From a virus: a stretch of DNA of 64,000 bases. Made by a program: the position numbers and the translations under genes. The DNA is taken from the IMG/VR virus record IMGVR_UViG_3300046787_000675, positions 1 to 64,000 of that record. One strand, written 5' to 3'. Positions 44,901-54,640 of this stretch are shown here, piece after piece. Each line of letters begins with the position of its first letter. The stretch's first letter is position 1. Under the pieces are notes generated by a model, which searched no databases, was not told where the DNA came from, and saw nothing but the letters and a program-made list of their open reading frames with translations.

Positions 44901-46493
44901 TTAATTGTTATTAACAATGCATGCTCGCATTTCTGCGAACAAGGGCTGATCTGCCAACGCACGTAGGAAAATCCCACGCGCTCCATTTATATCTCGGCAC
45001 ATACTCTGTCCGAGACTCTTGATGGTCTTACGACCACCTAGATTTTGGATAACTTCTCCTGTCCAACTAGCGGTTTTACTTGTGTATGCTTCGCATTGTC
45101 TTATTATTATTTTTCCTGCCTCGTTAGCTTTACTTAAAAGCTTTTGAGAGAACTTGTAGTGGGATAAGGTAAGCATTTGACGTACTGACTTTTTGCGTAG
45201 CTTACGAGCAGCTTTACAAACCATATTACTTACTTCGAAAGGAGGTAGGATTATAACATCAAAGTTATTAACAAGCATAGCTACAGCTTTGTTGTGTAGT
45301 TCGGCTATTAAGTCTTTGATTTTCCAACGCATCCTATCTGCAGCTTTCTTAAGCCTATATCGTTGCTTAGCTGTACATTTAGTTTGTCGACTTATCAAGT
45401 CGTCTAAATAAATACACAATCTTGTTATTCTGCTCATAGCGCCTGAACCTATTTTAAAAACACCTGCAGGAGAGTAGCCTGTTAAGAATGTTCGTACACC
45501 TGGATCAAGAGCTACAATCCTACCTTGGTTTTCGGCAGGTACTGTAGTTACTTGTTCCGGTATACAGACAAACCATCTACCTTGTTGGTAAATAAGTCTG
45601 CTGTCCATAGGGGAATTTGGAATAGCTTCAGAATAGCGCAATACGCCTGACAATCTTTGATAAATACCTTTATCGCTTATCGCGCTCTTAGGGATGTAAC
45701 AAGAGTGTACAGGCTCTTTCTTACTTTTAAATTTAGGTACTTGGGGTACCCCTGTCTGCTTAGTAGTCATACGGCATTTAACAAGGCAAGAGTGCGCTTC
45801 TTTTACAGCTATAGACTTTATTTGATATGGTATTTCTTTCGACCATACAGGAGCGTCTTTGAAAAGAATATTTCTAAGATCCATCCAAGACACTCTTTCT
45901 GCAGGGTTTTTGTTTAACCAATCTAAAGCTAAGTTGTAGAAGAAACGGAAAGAACCTAGCCATTTCTTAAAGGCTATTTTCGTCTCTTTCAACGGATAGA
46001 TTCGTATCTTTCTCGATTTTGTTAGCGTACTTCCCAAATCGTGCGAAGCTGCTGGAGAAGTATTGTGATAATTCATTAACGTTTGTTGTGAGTTCTTCTT
46101 TGGAGCTAAAGCGGTGGTCATTGAGAACCACGATTTCTCCGCCGTTCTTCCTAACCATGGACTCAATGAGGTCAAATCCAAGTCTAACAAGTCGGTCTTT
46201 ACTGGTAACCACAAGCGTGAGCTTATCTCCCTGCATAAGTCGTTCCAGTAAGGCTTGAAGTCCTTTTCTTTTGAAGTTAAGAGCACTTCCGGTGTCTTCG
46301 ATGACTTCAGCGTTTGGGTACAGCTGTCTAAGTTGCGCGGTTTGTCGGACGAGGTCGTCCTTTTGTTCCGGCGAGTGGACTCTGCAGTAAAGGACGATAG
46401 AACTGTCTGCTTGTCCTCGAATGTACGATTTGACATCGTACAATCGCTGACCTGCTTCATTTTTGACTGTTCTAATCTTTCCTTCATCTGCAT
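44901..46493 (-). CDS. tnpB: TnpB, catalytically rearranged (Fanzor2-like/pro-Fanzor type); true start uncertain
   Basis: KIRIYP, ALDPGVRTF, VIILPPF (no canonical Glu), QCEAYTSKT, RDINGARGI. Confidence 0.88.
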   Translation of the reverse strand: MQMKERLEQSKMKQVSDCTMSNRTFEDKQTVLSSFTAESTRRNKRTTSSDKPRNLDSCTQTLKSSKTPEVLLTSKEKDFKPYWNDLCREISSRLWLPVKTDLLDLDLTSLSPWLGRTAEKSWFSMTTALAPKKNSQQTLMNYHNTSPAASHDLGSTLTKSRKIRIYPLKETKIAFKKWLGSFRFFYNLALDWLNKNPAERVSWMDLRNILFKDAPVWSKEIPYQIKSIAVKEAHSCLVKCRMTTKQTGVPQVPKFKSKKEPVHSCYIPKSAISDKGIYQRLSGVLRYSEAIPNSPMDSRLIYQQGRWFVCIPEQVTTVPAENQGRIVALDPGVRTFLTGYSPAGVFKIGSGAMSRITRLCIYLDDLISRQTKCTAKQRYRLKKAADRMRWKIKDLIAELHNKAVAMLVNNFDVIILPPFEVSNMVCKAARKLRKKSVRQMLTLSHYKFSQKLLSKANEAGKIIIRQCEAYTSKTASWTGEVIQNLGGRKTIKSLGQSMCRDINGARGIFLRALADQPLFAEMRACIVNNN

Positions 46494-46557
46494 ACTTCCT
46501 TAATGTGTTAGGATGCATTCCTAATTCTTTACTCGCCTTTCTACTTGGTAGTAACAT
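45967..46557 (-). CDS. tnpA: IS607 serine recombinase TnpA
   Basis: N-terminal HTH (LGMHPNTLRKY), YCRVHS, QKDDLVRQ, EDTGSALNFKRKGL, KDRLVRLG. Confidence 0.93.
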   Translation of the reverse strand: MLLPSRKASKELGMHPNTLRKYADEGKIRTVKNEAGQRLYDVKSYIRGQADSSIVLYCRVHSPEQKDDLVRQTAQLRQLYPNAEVIEDTGSALNFKRKGLQALLERLMQGDKLTLVVTSKDRLVRLGFDLIESMVRKNGGEIVVLNDHRFSSKEELTTNVNELSQYFSSSFARFGKYANKIEKDTNLSVERDENSL

Positions 46558-46637: not shown

Positions 46638-47300
46638 TTAGTTAAAATCCTCTTCCTGCGGGACATACTTTTTCTTATCGCTGTCGTAGCACATGGTAAA
46701 AGTTATATCGAGAGCTACAGGTATTTTTAGTATAGACACGACTTTGTCTATTACATCATCGTCCAATACAACACATCCCTGATCTTCATAATAGGTCTGG
46801 TGTTTTATAAACATATCCCATTCCGCTCTAGGTACCTTAGGGATAGGGTGGTTTCTATTCCCATAAACACTTTCGTACTCATAAGAGGTCATAAGTCTTG
46901 TATTTAATTTATGCAATCTGCGAATCTCCGGATATGCGCCTACATCTGTATCTAGTGTTAAGATCATACCTTCAGACTTCCAGGTTATACCTATGCGATG
47001 TTTATTTTTTTCCTTACTTCTATTTTTATAGAATACGCTTATTTGATATACGAACTTTTTACCGGATTGGTTTATCTGAGTAGTACCGTCAGTAGGAAAT
47101 ACCTCAAGGGCTTTTGCCAGCTGCTCCCTTGTAGCAGATGCTATATAGGTATTATGTCCGTACCCTCCTGTAGACTCAATACCGGTCTTATCGTAGATAA
47201 GTTTCTCCTCCGTGGCTACGCGTATATCTTCTTTATACTTCTTTTCCAAACGTACCAAGGCTTCTGCGTGTTCCTCGTGTACCTGTTGTATTGTTTTCAT
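46638..47300 (-). CDS. Hypothetical protein; last codons supplied by the IS left end
   Basis: 220 aa; ends EEDFN* now, EEEV* in the reconstructed empty site. Confidence 0.7.
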   Translation of the reverse strand: MKTIQQVHEEHAEALVRLEKKYKEDIRVATEEKLIYDKTGIESTGGYGHNTYIASATREQLAKALEVFPTDGTTQINQSGKKFVYQISVFYKNRSKEKNKHRIGITWKSEGMILTLDTDVGAYPEIRRLHKLNTRLMTSYEYESVYGNRNHPIPKVPRAEWDMFIKHQTYYEDQGCVVLDDDVIDKVVSILKIPVALDITFTMCYDSDKKKYVPQEEDFN

Positions 47301-48036
47301 AATTTTCCTTTGTTATTCTTATTATTTAGAACTACGGCCTGTACATGGGAATTTATACTGACATCATTTATACTATCTCTTACGTTGTCCAGTGCTGCTA
47401 TAGATACACCTACAGGTAAATTTGCTGAATTAAGATATAATGTTAAATGTTCAACAGCTTTATCTACTGTTAGGTCTACGCTTCTCATATTTTTCCTTTT
47501 TTGTTATATTTGTTTACTTATTATTGCGACTAAGGAGGATTTGTATACGGGGGATGTTTTACATAAATCTCCCGCTGCTTTAGCTAGAGATTGTTCCAGA
47601 CTTAAGACCTTAGCTTCTTTAATATTTGTTATACAGAATGAGTCGTTTCCCTTATATCCTCCAATATCATAGATCTTGAAGGACGGAATACTTTGGTGTA
47701 AATAGATGAGCCTATTTTCTTATTTATTATACACATATAGAAGTACTATGCACGATATTAACCCGACTATCTATCACAGGTGCCTTGACTTTTTCGCTAA
47801 CAGAATACCATGGTTTATCAGTCACTTTGTGATATACTAACTCGCTCGATAGTTTTCTTACATTAAAACCCCCAGACTCTTCTATTCTCTCTGATATGTT
47901 ATTCATGTATGACCTCTTCTGCTTCAGACGATGTATCTTTGCATATTTTAGAGAGGGTCGTTAAAAGTTAAAATATCAGTTGACATTTGTTGATTCCTAT
48001 TTATATTCGTTGTATGGTTAAAACAACGAGGTTTAT

Positions 48037-48609
48037 ATGTTTTTAAAAAAGTGGGCTAAACAGCAACAAATAAGCTACTGGACAGCCCTTAGGTGGTTTC
48101 ATTCTGGTAAGTTACCTGTTAAAGCTATCCAAACTGAAACAGGGTCTATTTTAGTAATTGAAGAGTCTTCTGCACCGTTATCTAATTGTGTAGGAGTACA
48201 CCTGTACGCTAGGGTAAGTAGTCACGACCAAAAACAAGATCTCAATAGACAGCTACAGAGGTTGCGTGACTACTGCGCTTCTAGAGGTTTTAATATACTT
48301 AGTGAAACAGCTGAAATTGGTTCAGGGTTAAACTCTGAACGCAAAGGTCTGGCTAAGATTCTTAAAAAAGAAGCTGGGGATATTGTCGTCGAACATAGAG
48401 ATAGACTTGCACGCTTCGGTGTCCCTTACATAGAAGAGGCGCTGTCTGCTAGACATAGAAAACTTGTAGTTATCAATGAGACTGAAAGTTCTCAAGAACT
48501 TGTACAAGACTTTATTGATATTGTCACATGTATGTGTGCTCGAATCTATGGAAAACGATCTGCCTCTAATAAAGCTAAAAAAGCTTTAGCAGCCACTCAA
48601 CAGGATTAA
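48037..48609 (+). CDS. tnpA: IS607 serine recombinase TnpA
   Basis: WAKQQQISYWTALRWF, YARVSSHDQKQDL, EIGSGLN, EHRDRLARFG, CARIYGKR. Confidence 0.95.
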   Translation: MFLKKWAKQQQISYWTALRWFHSGKLPVKAIQTETGSILVIEESSAPLSNCVGVHLYARVSSHDQKQDLNRQLQRLRDYCASRGFNILSETAEIGSGLNSERKGLAKILKKEAGDIVVEHRDRLARFGVPYIEEALSARHRKLVVINETESSQELVQDFIDIVTCMCARIYGKRSASNKAKKALAATQQD

Positions 48610-48610
48610 T

Positions 48611-49684
48611 ATGAAAAGGTCTAGTAAATGCTCTATTAAGTTTACTACTAAGAGTAAACAACACAAGCTTTCTCTTATTTTAGACGAATATGCCCGTGTA
48701 GTAAATTCATTTATAGACCTCTTTTGGACATCCTGCCCAAGTAAGGCTGCCCTTTTAAAACCTGTTGTAGACTCTGTTAATTCTTATTTTTCCGCACGTC
48801 TTAGAAAAGTAGCTGCTCGCGAAGCTATAGATATGGTAGTAGCCATGAAGCAACGAGGCGGGAATAAACCTGTACATACAGGTAAACGTATGTGCCTTTC
48901 CGAAACAATTGCAAACTACAAACCTTCGAAAGCAAAGCATTTCGAAGGTTGGATAGAGTTGCGGTGTATAGGTGCTAAAATAGCTATTGACCTTCCTATA
49001 AAGCTGCACAAACACTTTAATAAGTTACATGCTTCGATGGATTTATGTAAATCCATCGTACTTACGCCTACCTACGCGATGTTCTCTTTTTCTAAAGAAA
49101 TAGAGTACCCTGCGGTTGTGTCTGCACCTCTAGCTATAGACTCCGGAATAAAAGCTCTTGCTTCGTGTTCGGACAACACCCAACTAGGTGCCGATATAGA
49201 AACATACATTAAAAGAGTTAGACGTTGTAAACAGAACTCTAGAGGGCAGCAAACTGCTCGAAGAGCCTTAAAACAACGAATAGACGAAGTAGCTAAACAA
49301 GTTTTACAGAAGGGCGCTGATGTTGTCATCGTAGAAAACTTAAAGAACATAACAAAAAACACTAAAGTCAAACGACGCTTGACTAAAAATATGCGTTGCG
49401 TTCTCGGTACTTGGAACCTGAGATATTGGTTAAGCAGATTAGAACAGCGCTGCGAATCGAACCGTGTTCGATTCGTTAGCGTTCCTGCTTACTACACATC
49501 TCAGAAATGTTCTAAGTGCGGTCACACCGAGAAGAGAAACAGGCAACAAGAAATATTCCGATGCTGTGTCTGTGATTACACAGCTAACGCTGACGTGCAA
49601 GCGTCTATGAATATTTTAGGTCTGTTTCTTGCCGGCACCTACGGTTCCGGCTGCAAAGACAAGTTTGCTATAAAAGTAAACTGA
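48611..49684 (+). CDS. tnpB: TnpB RNA-guided nuclease (compact, 357 aa, intact D-E-D and Zn finger)
   Basis: AIDSG, IVENL, YTSQKCSKC..CCVC..NADVQASMNI. Confidence 0.93.
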   Translation: MKRSSKCSIKFTTKSKQHKLSLILDEYARVVNSFIDLFWTSCPSKAALLKPVVDSVNSYFSARLRKVAAREAIDMVVAMKQRGGNKPVHTGKRMCLSETIANYKPSKAKHFEGWIELRCIGAKIAIDLPIKLHKHFNKLHASMDLCKSIVLTPTYAMFSFSKEIEYPAVVSAPLAIDSGIKALASCSDNTQLGADIETYIKRVRRCKQNSRGQQTARRALKQRIDEVAKQVLQKGADVVIVENLKNITKNTKVKRRLTKNMRCVLGTWNLRYWLSRLEQRCESNRVRFVSVPAYYTSQKCSKCGHTEKRNRQQEIFRCCVCDYTANADVQASMNILGLFLAGTYGSGCKDKFAIKVN

Positions 49685-52600
49685 TTGTCAACGGTTAACC
49701 TTATCTGTTACACCCTTCGTAACTATATCCTCTACACTCTGGGGTATTTTTTCTAAAAAACGACACCACTTGTTCTCCTTCTCTAAAATACGGTTCCACA
49801 CTATTTCATTGACGTTGCGCATATTTATTACCTCGTTTTGTTTATTATGTATGTTTCAGTACTTTATATTTCTTTAAGATTGAAAAAAGAGTTGTCTGGT
49901 TTTATAAAGTATGTCGAGAGACCTCACACATACTTCTCGATATACTAACATGTGTGTACTTGTATGAACTTCCTGGGATACTACCTTAGATTTTTCTGTG
50001 CTTAAAGGTGTACGCAATCCTTCCCAGATTTCCGTAGCTATCTTTTCATTAATATTATCCATTAGCTTTCTCTATTATCGTTTAAATTCATTACGACATC
50101 TGTAATCTGTAGATGTATGGTGTTTATAGGTATTTCCGTGAAATGGTTACGACCTACCAGATATAATGTATTCTGGTGTATCTGTTCCTCGAATATTTTA
50201 TCTATAGGCTTTCGTATATAATCCCTCACTGTGTTAAAGGGAATAACATCTATGTTTTGCAAGTAGTATTACCTCATGGATGTAGGGTGTTATGATCTTT
50301 GTAGTATGATTTTTGACGGTACATATGTTATGTATTACTTCTCGCATCATCGGATGCTTCTCTATTGATCTTCTTATGTCGACTACAGTTGTTACAACCT
50401 TGGATGAAACGTTAGTCATACTTTCGCTACCTCTTCCATAAACCCTCCGCTGTTGCTGTAGCGATATCATCTATTCCTCCTATCTCGGTGTCGCGTAAAC
50501 CGTGTCTGACATACAGATTTACATCTATATTGACGGATTCCCTTACTTGAGGATATAATTTAAATTCCATTATATCCTCTATTGTAGTTGTCACTTTTTT
50601 ATCGACTTTTCTCATAGGTTATAGTTTATCCTAGCTACCAATCCTTCATCCTCACCGTCTATTACACTCCACGTATTGTCCATTGTAAAAAAGTATACAT
50701 AGTCACTTACATCTTCTTTTAGACTTATTATTTCCTCAAATCTTTTTGTCATTACTTTACCTATAATTTTTGTTACGTTTTTCATAGTTTATCCTTCTGT
50801 ATCCCCTCGCGAGTGTCCATAACCACCCTGCTCTTAAGACCGTGTGTCACCGCCAGGTACTCGGTAAAGATATATACCGGTAATATTTTAGGTATAGTGT
50901 GTTTTAATTCATTGAGGGGTACTTGCGGGCTTTCTTTTATTAGCTTTTGTATATTTTTCATATTCAGATATTTTTTTCAATGTTAAGGGCATTACCCACA
51001 AACCTGTCTACCTTGTTTTTTTTGGCTAAATAGTTCGGTATATGTTTTCATAGGGACAGTAACCGTGCTTGTAATTGAACCTCTAAGGTCGTAACAACTT
51101 ACGGTACATATCTGTTCATGAGTCCTCCTGCGCATAATACCCTCATATTTGTATGTTTCGAAGTCTTCCCGGTCATTTCTGTTTACCAGATTTAAGGGAT
51201 CTAGAGGAGCCGTCTCTATAGATAGTCTCGTTAGGTACCTTAATCTATTTTTAATATTACCGTTTACATTAATCATAAACCATCTCACCTAATGTCTGTA
51301 GATAGGATCTTATTATCGCGTGTTCTTTATTGGAAGTAACTGTGTTTTTTACGATAAATACTACGTTAGCAATATCCAAACTCGTAGACACTTTCTCATT
51401 GCCGAGGCTTATAATACAATACTGCGTATTGCGGTATATAGGTTCGCAAGGTGGGTAAGGTTTATATATATTTAAATCATAACCATTGCCGGAACCGTCA
51501 TTAAATTCTACAGATATTTTAAATCGCTTATGTATTTCGTTTTGTACGGTGTTTTTTATGTTTTTCATAGCATTGTCCTTTCTAAACGGAGTCTATATCC
51601 TATAGATATCTTTATTATCTCTTGTAGTATAGAGTTCTGTACTTTGTTTCTAATGTCCGATACTTTTATAACATCATCCATATACATCATTACATTCTGC
51701 TCACCTTGAGGTGTATAAAAAACGTAGATTTCTCTATCTATTTCTTGTTTTCCGCTTCTGTACGATGGTGATGTTAGATCAATCACCGTTGTCAATACGA
51801 AACACTTTTGTAGTTTTTCTAATACTTTATCGCTTGTGTTTTTCAAGATATATTCCTTATACAGGAGGTTTCTTAGTATATATGTTTTCCGATAAGCTGA
51901 ATTTGTAGCTGTCTACAGTATCCCATATAGCGTCGCTCACGGTAGACCTTGTCTTTTCTGATACAGAGTTCTCCAAGTCTATCTTGACCTGTTTAAGGAG
52001 TCCTTTAAATATTGTATTGAATACTATTCTGTTGTTGTTTTTCATATGTCCTTACCTAAAAAAAAGGGAACTTTCTTCTTTTTATAAAAAGAGAATTCGG
52101 TGTTTGGTAGTCAGTGTGGGGAGGTAGCTTCAAACATGTATCTACCCTGTGTGCGATGTTTATTCGGAGGTTTATCTCTATCTCTTTAGATAAAGAGTTT
52201 ATGACCCCACATATGATTTTATGATGATAGAGTTTGTAAGCTACGATATCATGTACAGTTCGCATATTTATCATTCCTTTATTATTACTTCTTTTAGATC
52301 TCCTTTATTACTACGTTGGATATGCTTGTAGCCTTATTGTATTTGTTGACTTTATCCCTAACATCCCAGTGTATACTGTGCCATGCTGTACTCAGCGACA
52401 CTTTCTCATCGCCGCAGCTTATAATACAATACTGAGTATTTAACTGCTCATTAAAGTCTACAGATATTTTAAATCGCTTATGTATTTCGTAGTGTACAGT
52501 GTTTTTTATGTTTTTCATATCATTGTCCTTTCTATACCTTTAGATGTTCCTATAGGTAAAGTTCTAGGTGTTTTTTCGTGTACGGCTGTCTGTACCTCGC

Positions 52601-53225
52601 TCCATATACCATTAGAGTCACATACGGTGTTAAGTTTATTTGTTAGTGAGGCATCTAATGCTATTAACCTGTTGGTAATTTTATGCTCTACGTTGTTCAT
52701 AATCACATATCCTTTAAATTATTAGAACCTAGAATAGTTCTTCTAAACTCTTCTGCATTTACCGGCATAGGAGGGGCGATCAACCGGAAAGGTCTATATG
52801 TTATGGCATCGTCTGTTTTTGCAATAATGTCTATAACAGTTATTTTATCGTCTATTTCGATCCACATATGTTTAGTAATAGCCTCAGATACGTCAATAGC
52901 ATTTTCAAATACCAAAAATCTGACTTTTAAACGGATACTTGCGCTTACGTTTCTCATTATATCTCTTCTTTTTCTATGACATGTAGTCTTATTATTTGAT
53001 GTCGTGCAAGTTCACGATCCACCGGTACCCTAACCTTTCTATACACAGCGTTAGAAACACCCATTGTCATTAGATTAGCTGTATCCGGATATATCTTTTT
53101 ACTTAGCTCCTTTAATACATGAATACTTCCCACATTAATCATTGCTTACCTCTGTACATATGGGTTTTATATCTATTTCTGTTCTGTTTTCCGGTCCTAT
53201 GTTGTACATACGGATCCTCTCTGTT

Positions 53226-53260
53226 AAAAAAAAGCCCTGTTTTTAGGCAGGGCTTTTTTT
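53226..53260. terminator. Bidirectional intrinsic terminator
   Basis: A8-GCCCTG..CAGGGC-T7. Confidence 0.85.
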
Positions 53261-53278
53261 GTTTATATAATATGGAGA

Positions 53279-53635
53279 TTAGTCTTTAACTAGCTCCTTA
53301 GACATTTTGAAGTAGTCAAACTGCTTGGCTACTTTCTTCTTATAGATTCCGGGATTAATGATCATATCATCATGTCTACCTGTTATAACGCAGCCGGCGA
53401 TTACCGGTTCTTTTACTTTCATGTATAACTGTCCGTCTTTCTCGTAGAACTCGATTTTACTCGGATCTGTTTCGACTACATGATGGTTTCCGGTTGTCTC
53501 GGATTTACCTACGATCAGTTTATCTCCTACCATCTCCTCTTTCGCAGGGATGTAAGATATTACATCTCTAGGTAGTTCGTTTACTTGATAAAAGATTACT
53601 TCCCCATGGAAGCTTGTTTTTAGTTTGCTTTGCAT
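53279..53635 (-). CDS. Small His-motif (cupin-like) protein of the type usually adjacent to DUF6745 genes
   Basis: FHGEV, ETTGNHHVV, RHDDMIINPGIY. Confidence 0.65.
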   Translation of the reverse strand: MQSKLKTSFHGEVIFYQVNELPRDVISYIPAKEEMVGDKLIVGKSETTGNHHVVETDPSKIEFYEKDGQLYMKVKEPVIAGCVITGRHDDMIINPGIYKKKVAKQFDYFKMSKELVKD

Positions 53636-53701
53636 CTTTTTGTTCCTTGTTTTTTGGGTAATTAGTATACCTGTGCCTTCTGTTTAGTAAATAAGAAGAC
53701 T

Positions 53702-54640
53702 TTATTTGATGTCTTCAATAACATGTCCTGTCATATCCTCTTCCGCACGGTCTTCTAGAGCCTGGGGGATAGTGCGTACATTTGGCGATACGCCTTCTAT
53801 GGCATAAATACCCATGGTCTGGTGTTTCATAAACAGGTGTGGAGCATATTGTACTTTATCGAATAGTCTGGCCATATCATAGAGTCTATACTCAGATTTC
53901 GCGTACCACTCATTTCCGGGATAGTTTTTATAGGTGTCGATCAATTTCCCTAGTTCTACCATCCTGTCGATACCATATTTCCGCACAAACTCCATTTTAA
54001 TGTCCGAAGATTGGATCTTATGATAATCCGACAGCTTTAGTTGAGCGGTCGGTGTCATAACAAGCCATTCTGGGACATGTATCCCGTTTAACCAATACTG
54101 ACAATATCCGTCGCGCCATACGACAGCAGGGCCCATATCTTTATGGAGAACATCTCTTTGCAAGGTGTGTGTCACTACAGGAGACTCACATACTACCCAG
54201 GCTCCGTCGAGCTGTATGGTATCCCATATACCGGTTTCCAGAGATTCTTTATATCTTTCGAACTCCTCGTGTTTTAAAACACTTATTTCGCGAAAATAAT
54301 CATAGAACGCAAGCCATCCGAAATCCTTAACGCCCCCGTAGGAACCAAAACTCGTACGGGCATTCGGATCCGGAGTAGCCTTACGCAAGTCTTCCAGACT
54401 CATTTCATCCAGGATATCCTGCCGGATTAACGGCAGATCGGCAATTAGGTAGTTACCTAGATATTGGGCGGCCATAGGAGATTTAACGAAAAATACCGGG
54501 GCTTTCTTTAAACCCGATAGCTGCATTATGTATTGGCAGTATACTGTCGCCAATTCTCTATTTAGGGGTTTTATTGTGGACCATTTATCTACGATCGGCG
54601 CAAAGAGTGCTTTTTGCTCTTTTGTTAGTTCTGTAATCAT
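53702..54640 (-). CDS. DUF6745-like protein
   Basis: MITELTKEQ, VKSPMAA, GWLAFYDYF, VCESP, LHKDMGPAVVWRDG..YWLNGIHVP. Confidence 0.7.
   Translation of the reverse strand: MITELTKEQKALFAPIVDKWSTIKPLNRELATVYCQYIMQLSGLKKAPVFFVKSPMAAQYLGNYLIADLPLIRQDILDEMSLEDLRKATPDPNARTSFGSYGGVKDFGWLAFYDYFREISVLKHEEFERYKESLETGIWDTIQLDGAWVVCESPVVTHTLQRDVLHKDMGPAVVWRDGYCQYWLNGIHVPEWLVMTPTAQLKLSDYHKIQSSDIKMEFVRKYGIDRMVELGKLIDTYKNYPGNEWYAKSEYRLYDMARLFDKVQYAPHLFMKHQTMGIYAIEGVSPNVRTIPQALEDRAEEDMTGHVIEDIK

Follow-up and report, generated by a model that had tools for sequence, protein, structure and literature searches.

The window, a 64,000-nucleotide stretch of DNA from a large uncultured phage, carries a conserved pair of genes, a DUF6745-like core and an all-beta partner, and after it about 20 paralogous mini-genes in an operon-like chain. 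On sequence grounds the encoded mini-proteins (minis) are supported as one family that shares a cap at the N-terminus and a hydrophobic register of four residues. The minis are probably equivalent to, or descended from, the central tract of DUF6745 proteins, and we give even chances to the reading in which a phage DUF6745 system is present here in split form. The features of the locus, in the direction of transcription of the minus strand, are:

53702..54640, minus strand: DUF6745-like core, 312 aa, without central tetrad tract; Pfam PF20530 at 25.2 bits; phrog_31813
53279..53635, minus strand: partner, 118 aa, all-beta model with conserved His/Glu/Cys
53227..53260, no strand: bidirectional terminator-like hairpin, 15-pair stem between an A-run and a T-run, parting the pair from the array
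53135..53209, minus strand: m01, 24 aa, MYNI..., truncated member
52957..53142, minus strand: m02, 61 aa, MINV...
52703..52957, minus strand: m03, 84 aa, MRNV...
52515..52700, minus strand: m04, 61 aa, MNNV...
52294..52518, minus strand: m05, 74 aa, MKNIKNTV..., paralogue of m09
52056..52274, minus strand: m06, 72 aa, MINM...
51857..52045, minus strand: m07, 62 aa, most tract-like member, contains ..SVSDAIWDTVDS..; P4 5.05
51565..51846, minus strand: m08, 93 aa, TTG start, MKNT...
51269..51568, minus strand: m09, 99 aa, MKNIKNTV...
50992..51276, minus strand: m10, 94 aa, MINV...
50782..50961, minus strand: m11, 59 aa, MKNI...
50612..50785, minus strand: m12, 57 aa, MKNV...
50427..50615, minus strand: m13, 62 aa, MRKV...; P4 6.17
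50234..50419, minus strand: m14, 61 aa, MTNV...
50062..50262, minus strand: m15, 66 aa, TTG start, MQNI...
49874..50062, minus strand: m16, 62 aa, MDNI..., periodicity across ~50 residues; P4 6.17
49688..49822, minus strand: m17 N-terminal part, 43 codons, MRNV..., interrupted by IS607
47957..49694, plus strand: IS607-family insertion in m17, Resolvase and Cas12f1-like_TNB domains; ends approximate
47899..47956, minus strand: m17 C-terminal remnant, 18 codons and stop; overlaps m18 start
47727..47906, minus strand: m18, 59 aa, MNNI...; P4 7.46
47629..47736, minus strand: m19, 35 aa, short member; P4 6.01
47297..47488, minus strand: m20, 63 aa, MRSV..., final member

The core and its partner

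The core matched PF20530 over residues 103-229 with 25.2 bits (E=1.1e-5), under the gathering threshold of 27 bits; its homologues lie near this threshold on both sides (P0002, 27.4 bits; P0003, 26.0 bits). Comparison with P0002, P0003 and P0005, all annotated as PF20530, gave E-values from 2e-49 to 1e-40. An exhaustive search with the core yielded 2945 representatives at E<=1e-3 and 1048 at E<=1e-10, and the 160.7-kb record contains a single copy. The structure model of the homologue P0005, drawn from alignment A4, which contains the window core, matched an ESM Atlas cluster with TM 0.70/0.80 over 283 residues; PF20530 is present in 92% of the members of this cluster. The literature searched makes no mention of DUF6745.

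The partner gene was found at 42 viral loci, and lies directly downstream of the core also in L008, L009, L012, L013 and L057. Alignment A3 revealed nearly invariant residues (H10 G11 E12, S45 E46 T47, G49 N50 H51 H52, C82, R87 H88), and the structure model is all-beta with a pLDDT of 90. The original prediction had called this protein cupin-like, a description for which we found no support. At E<=0.1 Pfam gave nothing for the partner or its 30 homologues save scattered chance matches. The model had no Foldseek match at E<=0.001; its best VIA match (Z 4.0) was the Yippee domain of Mis18, with no cupin among the 50 matches listed. Cupins have a double-stranded beta-helix (jelly-roll) fold. The cupin motifs are G-x5-H-x-H-x3,4-E-x6-G and G-x5-P-x-G-x2-H-x3-N, and the conserved GNHHV.E of the partner differs from the H-x-H motif. 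The terminator predicted between the pair and the array was found as the hairpin at 53227-53260; the relative L057 has a hairpin and T-run at the equivalent place.

Layout, cap and periodicity of the mini-gene array

The array begins 70 nt past the stop of the partner gene and comprises 20 consecutive ORFs of 24-99 aa between 53209 and 47297 on the minus strand; at m20 the stop overlaps with the start of the next gene, which is unrelated and encodes 220 aa. According to the ORF coordinates neighbouring mini-genes overlap at 11 of the 19 junctions, and nearly all 20 are preceded by a GAGG/AGGA-type RBS. Coding density is 96.3% from 49688 to 53209, a stretch of 3.5 kb with a GC content of 35-39%. 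The annotated frame had the top codon-usage score of the six frames in 17/20 minis vs 41/68 other small ORFs. With this coding density, the RBSs and the best frame, the predicted chain of about 20 mostly coupled mini-genes is real. As to a host-defence role, PADLOC, Pfam, NCBIfam and PDB gave no match.

The N-terminus is the best-conserved stretch of the mini family. It had been predicted that most members begin with M-x-N-[VI], and 14 of the 20 do; N3 followed by [VI]4 occurs in only 1 of 220 other genes. Genome-wide, 80 ORFs of at least 20 aa start with M-x-N-[VILM], 17 of them inside the array block. N3 is present in 17 of the 20 minis (codon AAC in 12, AAT in five). Since the V/I residues at positions 4 and 8 are spelled by six different codons, the cap is conserved at the protein level.

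The three V/I/L series quoted in the original prediction (51857-52045, 49874-50062 and 52957-53142) match the sequence exactly. V/I/L power at period 4 averaged 2.99 in the 20 minis vs 1.29 in 76 other small ORFs (Mann-Whitney U, p=1.7e-4) and 1.23 across 644 control segments of 62 aa; the maximum in 2000 shuffles was 1.96, none attaining the observed mean. The minis showed no signal at periods 3.5 and 3.6. P4 of individual minis ranged from 0.4 to 7.5, and only four reached period-4 status under the strict survey criterion. The periodicity extends up to ~50 residues in m16, m07 and m13; m08-m10 have long tails without periodicity.

Relation of the minis to the tetrad tract of DUF6745 proteins

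The original prediction placed a 4-periodic repeat after the SP motif of many DUF6745 proteins, and it exists: 51 of 154 homologues have a [Q/S/N/E][V/L/I]xx tract after an SP..QY motif, and 94 are without a tract (median length 314 aa). The tract lies between the N-terminal and C-terminal domains, and in the P0005 model it is a helical segment of low confidence, inserted between two domains that are modelled with confidence. Exactly where P0002 and P0005 have tracts the window core has ~25 non-repeat residues (alignment A1), which agrees with the short non-repetitive segment predicted there. Tract-bearing proteins (PF20530; phrog_31813; P0002, 500 aa, SVxx; P0005, 343 aa, QVxx) have their N- and C-terminal domains in common with the window core (33-45% identity, E down to 1e-50), fall into one fold class with it in the ESM Atlas (TM 0.70), and are followed by the same ~117-aa partner gene. 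Their tract has the 4-residue hydrophobic register of the minis, whereas in the window the register is found in about 20 separate genes and the core is without it. In a cyanobacterial Atlas cluster DUF6745 is fused to LRRs, another variable binding repeat.

An HMM built from the first 32 aa of the minis was searched against 2190 sequences and gave 64 matches at E<=1, 52 of which were tetrad-positive vs 10% of the database (Fisher p=1.4e-43); single E-values were marginal, the best being 1.8e-4. The profile thus preferentially finds DUF6745 tracts, including those of the cores P0118, P0002 and P0058, and tetrad mini-genes of other phages. Of ten HMMs with shuffled content each matched 0-7 sequences, and the mini HMM matched none of 221 controls from the same genome.

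As judged from the sequences, the likeness of the minis to canonical tracts is mainly one of the hydrophobic column. With the PSSM of this (b) column 11 of 20 minis exceeded the 95th percentile of the controls (p=3.6e-9), whereas by columns a, c and d taken alone the minis were no closer to the tract (p=0.5), their polar and variable tetrad positions departing from the tract consensus. That consensus has a polar Q/S/N/E ahead of the hydrophobic residue and R/G/W/E followed by D/S/A/N behind it. Inside b-defined segments the a, c and d columns were slightly tract-like (-2.38 vs -3.54 bits per tetrad, p=0.002). A few clear tetrad units persist, SVSDAIWDTVDS in m07, which had the top tetrad-PSSM score among the 20 minis, and EIWEGL in m16.

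Related loci contain bridging forms (MKNIKDEVYWKV...). In L011, minis with an MKNIK start continue into canonical EVxx/KVxx tetrads, and the adjoining tract-less core is 45% identical to that of the window. L012 has a mini with the bridging sequence MNEISNRVCNQVWDQV; its core breaks at the position of the tract, giving an ORF for the N-domain (120 aa) and a C part of 311 aa. The canonical tetrad arrays (L011, L015, L017, L023, L032, L046 and L060), which adjoin tract-less cores in other uncultured phages, have the same layout as the window locus, with core, partner and chains of coupled mini-genes, there 45-90 aa long. Within each array the minis have a conserved N-cap particular to that array, and the cap in L011 (MKNIK) is also that of m05 and m09. 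Their tetrads are near-perfect SVxx/QVxx/EVxx (P4 10-21), whereas the window minis have P4 0.4-7.5 and often non-periodic tails.

The pentapeptide-repeat proteins (A[D/N]LXX) also have a very short unit with one fixed hydrophobic residue, a preceding polar residue (N/D vs Q/S/N) and two free positions. The tract has a period of 4, not 5, and is helical at low confidence in the AlphaFold model; neither the minis nor the P0002 and P0005 tracts had a match to the Pfam pentapeptide family.

Arrays and tracts across phage lineages

Arrays adjoin tract-less cores in L010-12, L015, L017, L023, L032-35, L040-41, L046, L048 and L049, and no tract-bearing core surveyed had one. After clustering at 60% identity arrays were present in 6/11 tract-less vs 0/9 tract-bearing lineages (p=0.012), in a small sample anchored on the core-partner pair. 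Pooled period-4 small ORFs numbered 45/181 for tract-less and 2/65 for tract-bearing cores. At L060, found by the mini search, a core is surrounded by more than 20 minis. Core tract and adjoining array are thus complementary across lineages. The remaining five tract-less lineages (L013, L022, L029, L036, L050) had no array within 7 kb. The proposal that the repeat module has been externalised is partly supported, by the profile matches, the bridging forms and the complementarity; against it, the minis barely resemble tracts beyond the hydrophobic column, and 5/11 lineages are array-less.

It is possible, if rather doubtful, that the minis are stand-alone effectors, short amphipathic proteins that would act on targets in the host (takeover or anti-defence) without binding the core, the link to the tract being one of ancestry or mere linkage. 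With similarly limited probability, the array would then be a hyperplastic accessory region adjoining the pair. The terminator-like hairpin sets the array apart as a separate unit, there is next to no similarity outside the hydrophobic column, and some tract-less cores are without an array. The lengths and tails of the minis vary greatly, and relatives with 75-77% identity in the pair have minis that have diverged past recognition, as is typical of arms-race genes. However, stand-alone effectors leave unexplained why arrays occur only beside tract-less cores, why cap and register are retained at the protein level amid synonymous codon variety, and why the L012 core is split exactly at the tract position.

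If the locus is a split DUF6745 system, each mini would be translated as a short, probably helical protein of its own from a transcript with translational coupling, and erosion in this phage may have left little more of the minis than the hydrophobic stripe and the cap. Tentatively, we propose that they physically dock, via cap and stripe, on the core or the core-partner complex; in the original prediction they would be exchangeable partners or decoys. One conserved machine could in this way be dressed with many alternative variable surfaces, which plausibly recognise varying host targets early in infection. More speculatively, the minis might form a protein-level repertoire, in which any one of some 20 rapidly diversifying members could complete, in trans, the core and the metal-binding-looking partner. 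Were this true, the minis would stand in for the variable repeat that related phages have built in and provide many alternative specificities on one scaffold, and members would arise, decay and disappear within short times.

The cap as a possible leader

T-even internal-protein loci are polymorphic, consisting of hypervariable small genes with a common N-terminal capsid-targeting leader. In the array, too, small phage genes are clustered and quickly replaced but have a short N-terminus in common, the best-conserved part of the family, and M-x-N-[VI]-x3-[VI] could by analogy be a targeting or processing signal on unrelated cargo proteins. We regard this as improbable, since the periodicity extends far past the first 10 residues (to ~50 in m16, m07 and m13), and the arrays of other phages keep the tetrads but have different caps. 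Unlike the internal proteins, the minis are periodic throughout and linked to a conserved non-structural pair, in a region of non-structural genes; no sequence relation was detected. The T4-type leader ends in the prohead-protease site L/I-x-E. The minis' cap is conserved, yet no L/I-x-E stands at a fixed position after it, nor does any other consistent protease-site motif, which speaks against a T4-type capsid-targeting leader.

Turnover of array members

The truncated (24 and 35 aa) and IS-disrupted members of the original prediction were confirmed. The insertion in m17 encodes TnpA (48037-48609) and TnpB (48611-49684); the GG core allows the ends of the element to be placed only approximately. 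When the halves of m17 were rejoined at the GG core, they formed an ORF of 61 aa, and the stop of this ORF overlaps with the start of m18. These members, together with the strong degeneration relative to canonical arrays, could suggest functionless debris of a decaying repeat gene or array with ORFs open by chance or translational coupling, but this is very improbable given the 96% coding density over 3.5 kb at 35-39% GC, an RBS before nearly every ORF, the correct frame being the best of six in 17/20, and the protein-level conservation of N3, [VI]4 and [VI]8.

In L057, the sole closer relative, the core is 77% and the partner 75% identical to those of the window, and the first mini has no detectable similarity, which indicates that turnover is fast. 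A DNA tandem repeat was sought in the window array and none was found. The paralogues m05 and m09 are 45% identical (E=1.6e-17) and share a junction repeat of 90 nt that is 93% identical.

An array of small paralogous genes adjoins the DUF6745-like gene

Twenty small genes (minis, m01 to m20) lie 3′ of the genes encoding the 312-aa DUF6745-like protein (core) and its 118-aa partner, and form a real, fast-evolving paralogous family. The features of the region are:

53702-54640, minus strand, core gene
53279-53635, minus strand, partner gene
53227-53260, 15-bp bidirectional terminator-like hairpin between the core-partner pair and m01
53209-47297, minus strand, m01 to m20, 20 consecutive ORFs of 24-99 aa, downstream of the core and partner genes
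47957-49694, plus strand, IS607-family element (serine recombinase TnpA and TnpB), interrupting m17
44901-46557, minus strand, IS607-family element (serine recombinase TnpA and TnpB), near the array tail

Because nearly all minis are preceded by a GAGG/AGGA-type RBS, 11 of the 19 junctions overlap, the coding density between 49688 and 53209 is 96.3%, and the annotated frame had the best codon-usage score of the six frames in 17 of the 20 ORFs, the minis are real genes, as the original prediction of about 20 consecutive mini-genes had it. The N-terminal cap M-x-N-[VI], which had been ascribed to most of them, is present in 14. Asn3 occurs in 17 minis, with AAC and AAT codons both in use, and V/I at positions 4 and 8 is specified by six different codons. 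Outside the array the combination N3+[VI]4 was found in one of 220 other phage genes, and 17 of the 80 cap-type ORFs of the genome (M-x-N-[VILM], at least 20 aa) lie inside the array block.

The three series of hydrophobic residues with 4-residue spacing quoted in the original prediction read as claimed. Mean V/I/L power at period 4 was 2.99 for the minis, compared with 1.29 for other small ORFs and 1.23 for 62-aa pieces of large proteins, and none of 2000 shuffles reached the value of the minis (maximum 1.96). Excess power at 3.5-3.6, the usual period of amphipathic helices, was absent from the minis. The shuffles, together with the controls from the genome, reject chance or composition as the source of the periodicity. 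Pairwise similarity between minis is otherwise near nil, the exception being m05 and m09 (45% identity). The MAFFT alignment of the minis was unreliable past the first residues and was left out of the inference. No 12-nt DNA tandem repeat underlies the array in the window, and a protein atlas search with m16 matched unnamed viral clusters only.

Turnover within the array

The truncated and IS-disrupted members reported earlier were confirmed: the array includes ORFs of 24 and 35 aa, and joining the flanks of m17 at the GG core of the insertion restores a 61-aa frame, whose end overlaps m18 at ATGAATAA. The two IS607-family elements are dissimilar and lie within 3.4 kb of each other at the array tail. 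A 90-nt direct repeat (93% identity; 51498-51587 at the m08/m09 junction, 52448-52537 at the m04/m05 junction) covers the end of the preceding gene (m08 or m04, ..ERTM[LI]) together with the RBS and 22 initial codons of the gene that follows (m09 or m05). The repeat indicates that a gene junction recently underwent segmental duplication or unequal crossover.

The terminator said to separate the pair from the array corresponds to the 15-bp hairpin. In locus L057, the sole closer relative (core 77% and partner 75% identical), a terminator-like hairpin occupies the same place, after the partner gene and before the first mini (L057:1340-1385). BLAST found no similarity between the first mini of L057 and m02; the two loci have the hairpin position in common, and their arrays are unrelated in sequence.

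The core lacks the DUF6745 repeat tract

With the Pfam DUF6745 profile (PF20530) the core scored 25.2 bits, just below the threshold of 27. An exhaustive search from the core returned 2945 representatives at E<=1e-3 (50%-identity clusters), which makes DUF6745 a large, mostly viral family; it has no solved structure. Despite the sub-threshold Pfam score, the core is clearly homologous to its members. The model of a core homologue, P0005, matched DUF6745 clusters in the ESM Atlas with a TM of 0.70.

The 4-periodic repeat that the original prediction placed after the SP motif of many DUF6745 proteins does exist. Among 154 core homologues a tract of [Q/S/N/E][V/L/I]xx units (tetrads) was found in 51 and none in 94 (median length 314 aa). 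In a core alignment the tracts of the homologues P0002 (about 190 residues, SVxx) and P0005 (about 45 residues, QVxx) directly follow the conserved SP..QY motif, at which position the window core has a non-repeat stretch of about 25 residues. The AlphaFold model of P0005 presents the tract as a helical, low-confidence insert (pLDDT about 50) separating two confident domains.

Foldseek and VIA-wide comparisons of the partner and P0005 with the PDB gave nothing above Z 4.2, PDB profile searches with the core (A5) and partner (A3) alignments gave no match, and NCBIfam and PADLOC returned nothing for the core, the partner, their neighbours or two minis. With the P0002 tract, the NCBIfam/PADLOC searches gave low-complexity-type matches only (GvpQ, SdrD and similar). 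Residues 236-278 of P0002 (L008:5179-6681) scored 35.9 bits against gas-vesicle GvpQ NF041670 (cutoff 100), and the SVxx tract resembled the Pfam GvpQ-like family faintly; repeats or low complexity probably account for the similarity. An ESM Atlas cluster of 72 cyanobacterial members has DUF6745 fused to leucine-rich repeats (LRR_4/LRR_8), which are another variable binding repeat on the DUF6745 core. A search of the literature on DUF6745, its Pfam entry PF20530 and tract peptides turned up nothing relevant, and the family is barely described in the public record.

Sequence relationship between minis and tract

A tetrad PSSM was built from 42 tracts and scored on the window minis. In the hydrophobic column the minis resemble the tracts (p=3.6e-9). 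The other three positions alone were not tract-like (p=0.5); within hydrophobically defined segments they were mildly so (p=0.002). A profile of the first 32 residues of the minis, ungapped, was searched against 2190 sequences (the 154 homologues, every ORF of the fetched loci and, as controls, 221 ORFs from the genome that holds the window). As the original prediction required of a profile built from the minis, it matched DUF6745 repeats: of the 64 matches at E<=1, which included the tracts of three cores, 52 were tetrad-positive, compared with a share of 10% in the database. None of the 221 control ORFs was matched, and ten shuffled profiles gave 0-7 matches each.

The minis of L011, which adjoin a tract-less core 45% identical to that of the window, start with MKNIK like m05 and m09 and continue in perfect EVxx/KVxx tetrads. 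A mini of L012 reads MNEISNRVCNQVWDQV. These minis of L011 and L012 are bridging forms between the window minis and the tract.

Tracts and arrays are distributed complementarily

A locus search baited with the partner yielded 42 viral loci; baited with a single core it found distant high-GC tract-bearing loci only. Canonical SVxx/QVxx/EVxx mini-gene arrays adjoin tract-less cores in many lineages and were never seen beside tract-bearing cores in the fetched loci. With lineages defined by clustering cores at 60% identity and arrays as at least two period-4 small ORFs within 7 kb, arrays were present in 6/11 tract-less and 0/9 tract-bearing lineages (Fisher p=0.012). Pooled period-4 small ORFs numbered 45/181 and 2/65, respectively. 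In the remaining five tract-less lineages no array is adjacent, so that the array is either not obligatory or located elsewhere in those genomes.

In L012 (8977-10936; NCBI GCA_029979865.1, a 129-kb contig) the core gene is broken at the tract position: a 120-aa ORF encodes the N domain, a 311-aa ORF the C part, and 2-3 small ORFs intervene. At its N-terminus the C part resembles a degenerate mini over roughly 90 residues. The split core has arrays on either side, with a TnpB gene adjoining an array. Searches from a mini led to L060, where a core is surrounded by more than 20 minis, and to L059, interrupted by a contig end.

The window array has the register of the DUF6745 tract, resembles that tract weakly by profile and adjoins a core devoid of it; it is an unusually degenerate instance of detached tetrad minis beside a repeat-less DUF6745 gene. 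These features speak for the externalised repeat module of the original prediction, the result for the other three tetrad positions alone against it, and descent of the minis from the tract module, or equivalence to it, is probable. The minis would then be detached, here strongly eroded counterparts of that module, acting together with the core, perhaps by docking onto it, a step we put forward tentatively. The main alternative, that the minis act alone and independently of the core, draws on the hairpin between pair and array, the degeneracy of the window minis and the tract-less lineages without an array, but has to contend with the strict complementarity of tract and array and with the core split at the tract position. 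A cap serving as leader peptide, or an array of junk, fits poorly.

The complementary distribution suggests a scaffold whose specificity module can come in trans from separate genes and diversify one gene at a time, and offers a concrete, cheaply testable hypothesis: the repeat is carried within the protein or as an adjoining mini-gene library. The window would represent the eroded end of the spectrum, retaining N-cap and hydrophobic stripe while nearly all else drifts. Should docking prove wrong, the arrays would remain an exceptionally clear example of phage micro-proteins evolving by birth and death.

About 4.5 kb upstream of the tract-bearing core of L008, two small ORFs starting MNNIKVW.. 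and MNNTRVY.. (L008:410-961) could be stray minis that carry the cap, or coincidental. Antisense ORFs reading DRITDRIP../HLIPHLI.. (L017:5431-7030 and L023:11215-11499, both minus strand, and several in L060) are reverse-complement readings of tetrad mini-genes and would be easy false gene calls in such arrays.

Phage context and the partner protein

The IMG/VR virus record totals 160.7 kb; the window covers its first 64 kb and has nearly all genes on the minus strand. The phage is only remotely related to cultured ones; its large terminase shares ~24% identity with the terminases of Salmonella phage Arash and of Herelleviridae-like phages. Megablast of the array region against GenBank phages gave no match, nor did tblastn of the core against 50,697 GenBank phage records (E<=1e-5); consequently no cultured model phage was found. 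The genome contains one core, one partner and no other tetrad protein.

The partner gene lies directly 3′ of the core gene in many phages, and its product is 28-44% identical across homologues. The description of the partner as cupin-like found no support: 31 family members had no Pfam match, Foldseek found no match to its model (all-beta, confident, pLDDT 90), and the best VIA match was a Yippee domain at Z 4.0. Near-invariant residues are H10-G-E12, S45-E-T-x-G-N-H-H52, C82 and R87-H88, of which H10, E12, H51, H52, C82 and H88 could plausibly form a metal site.
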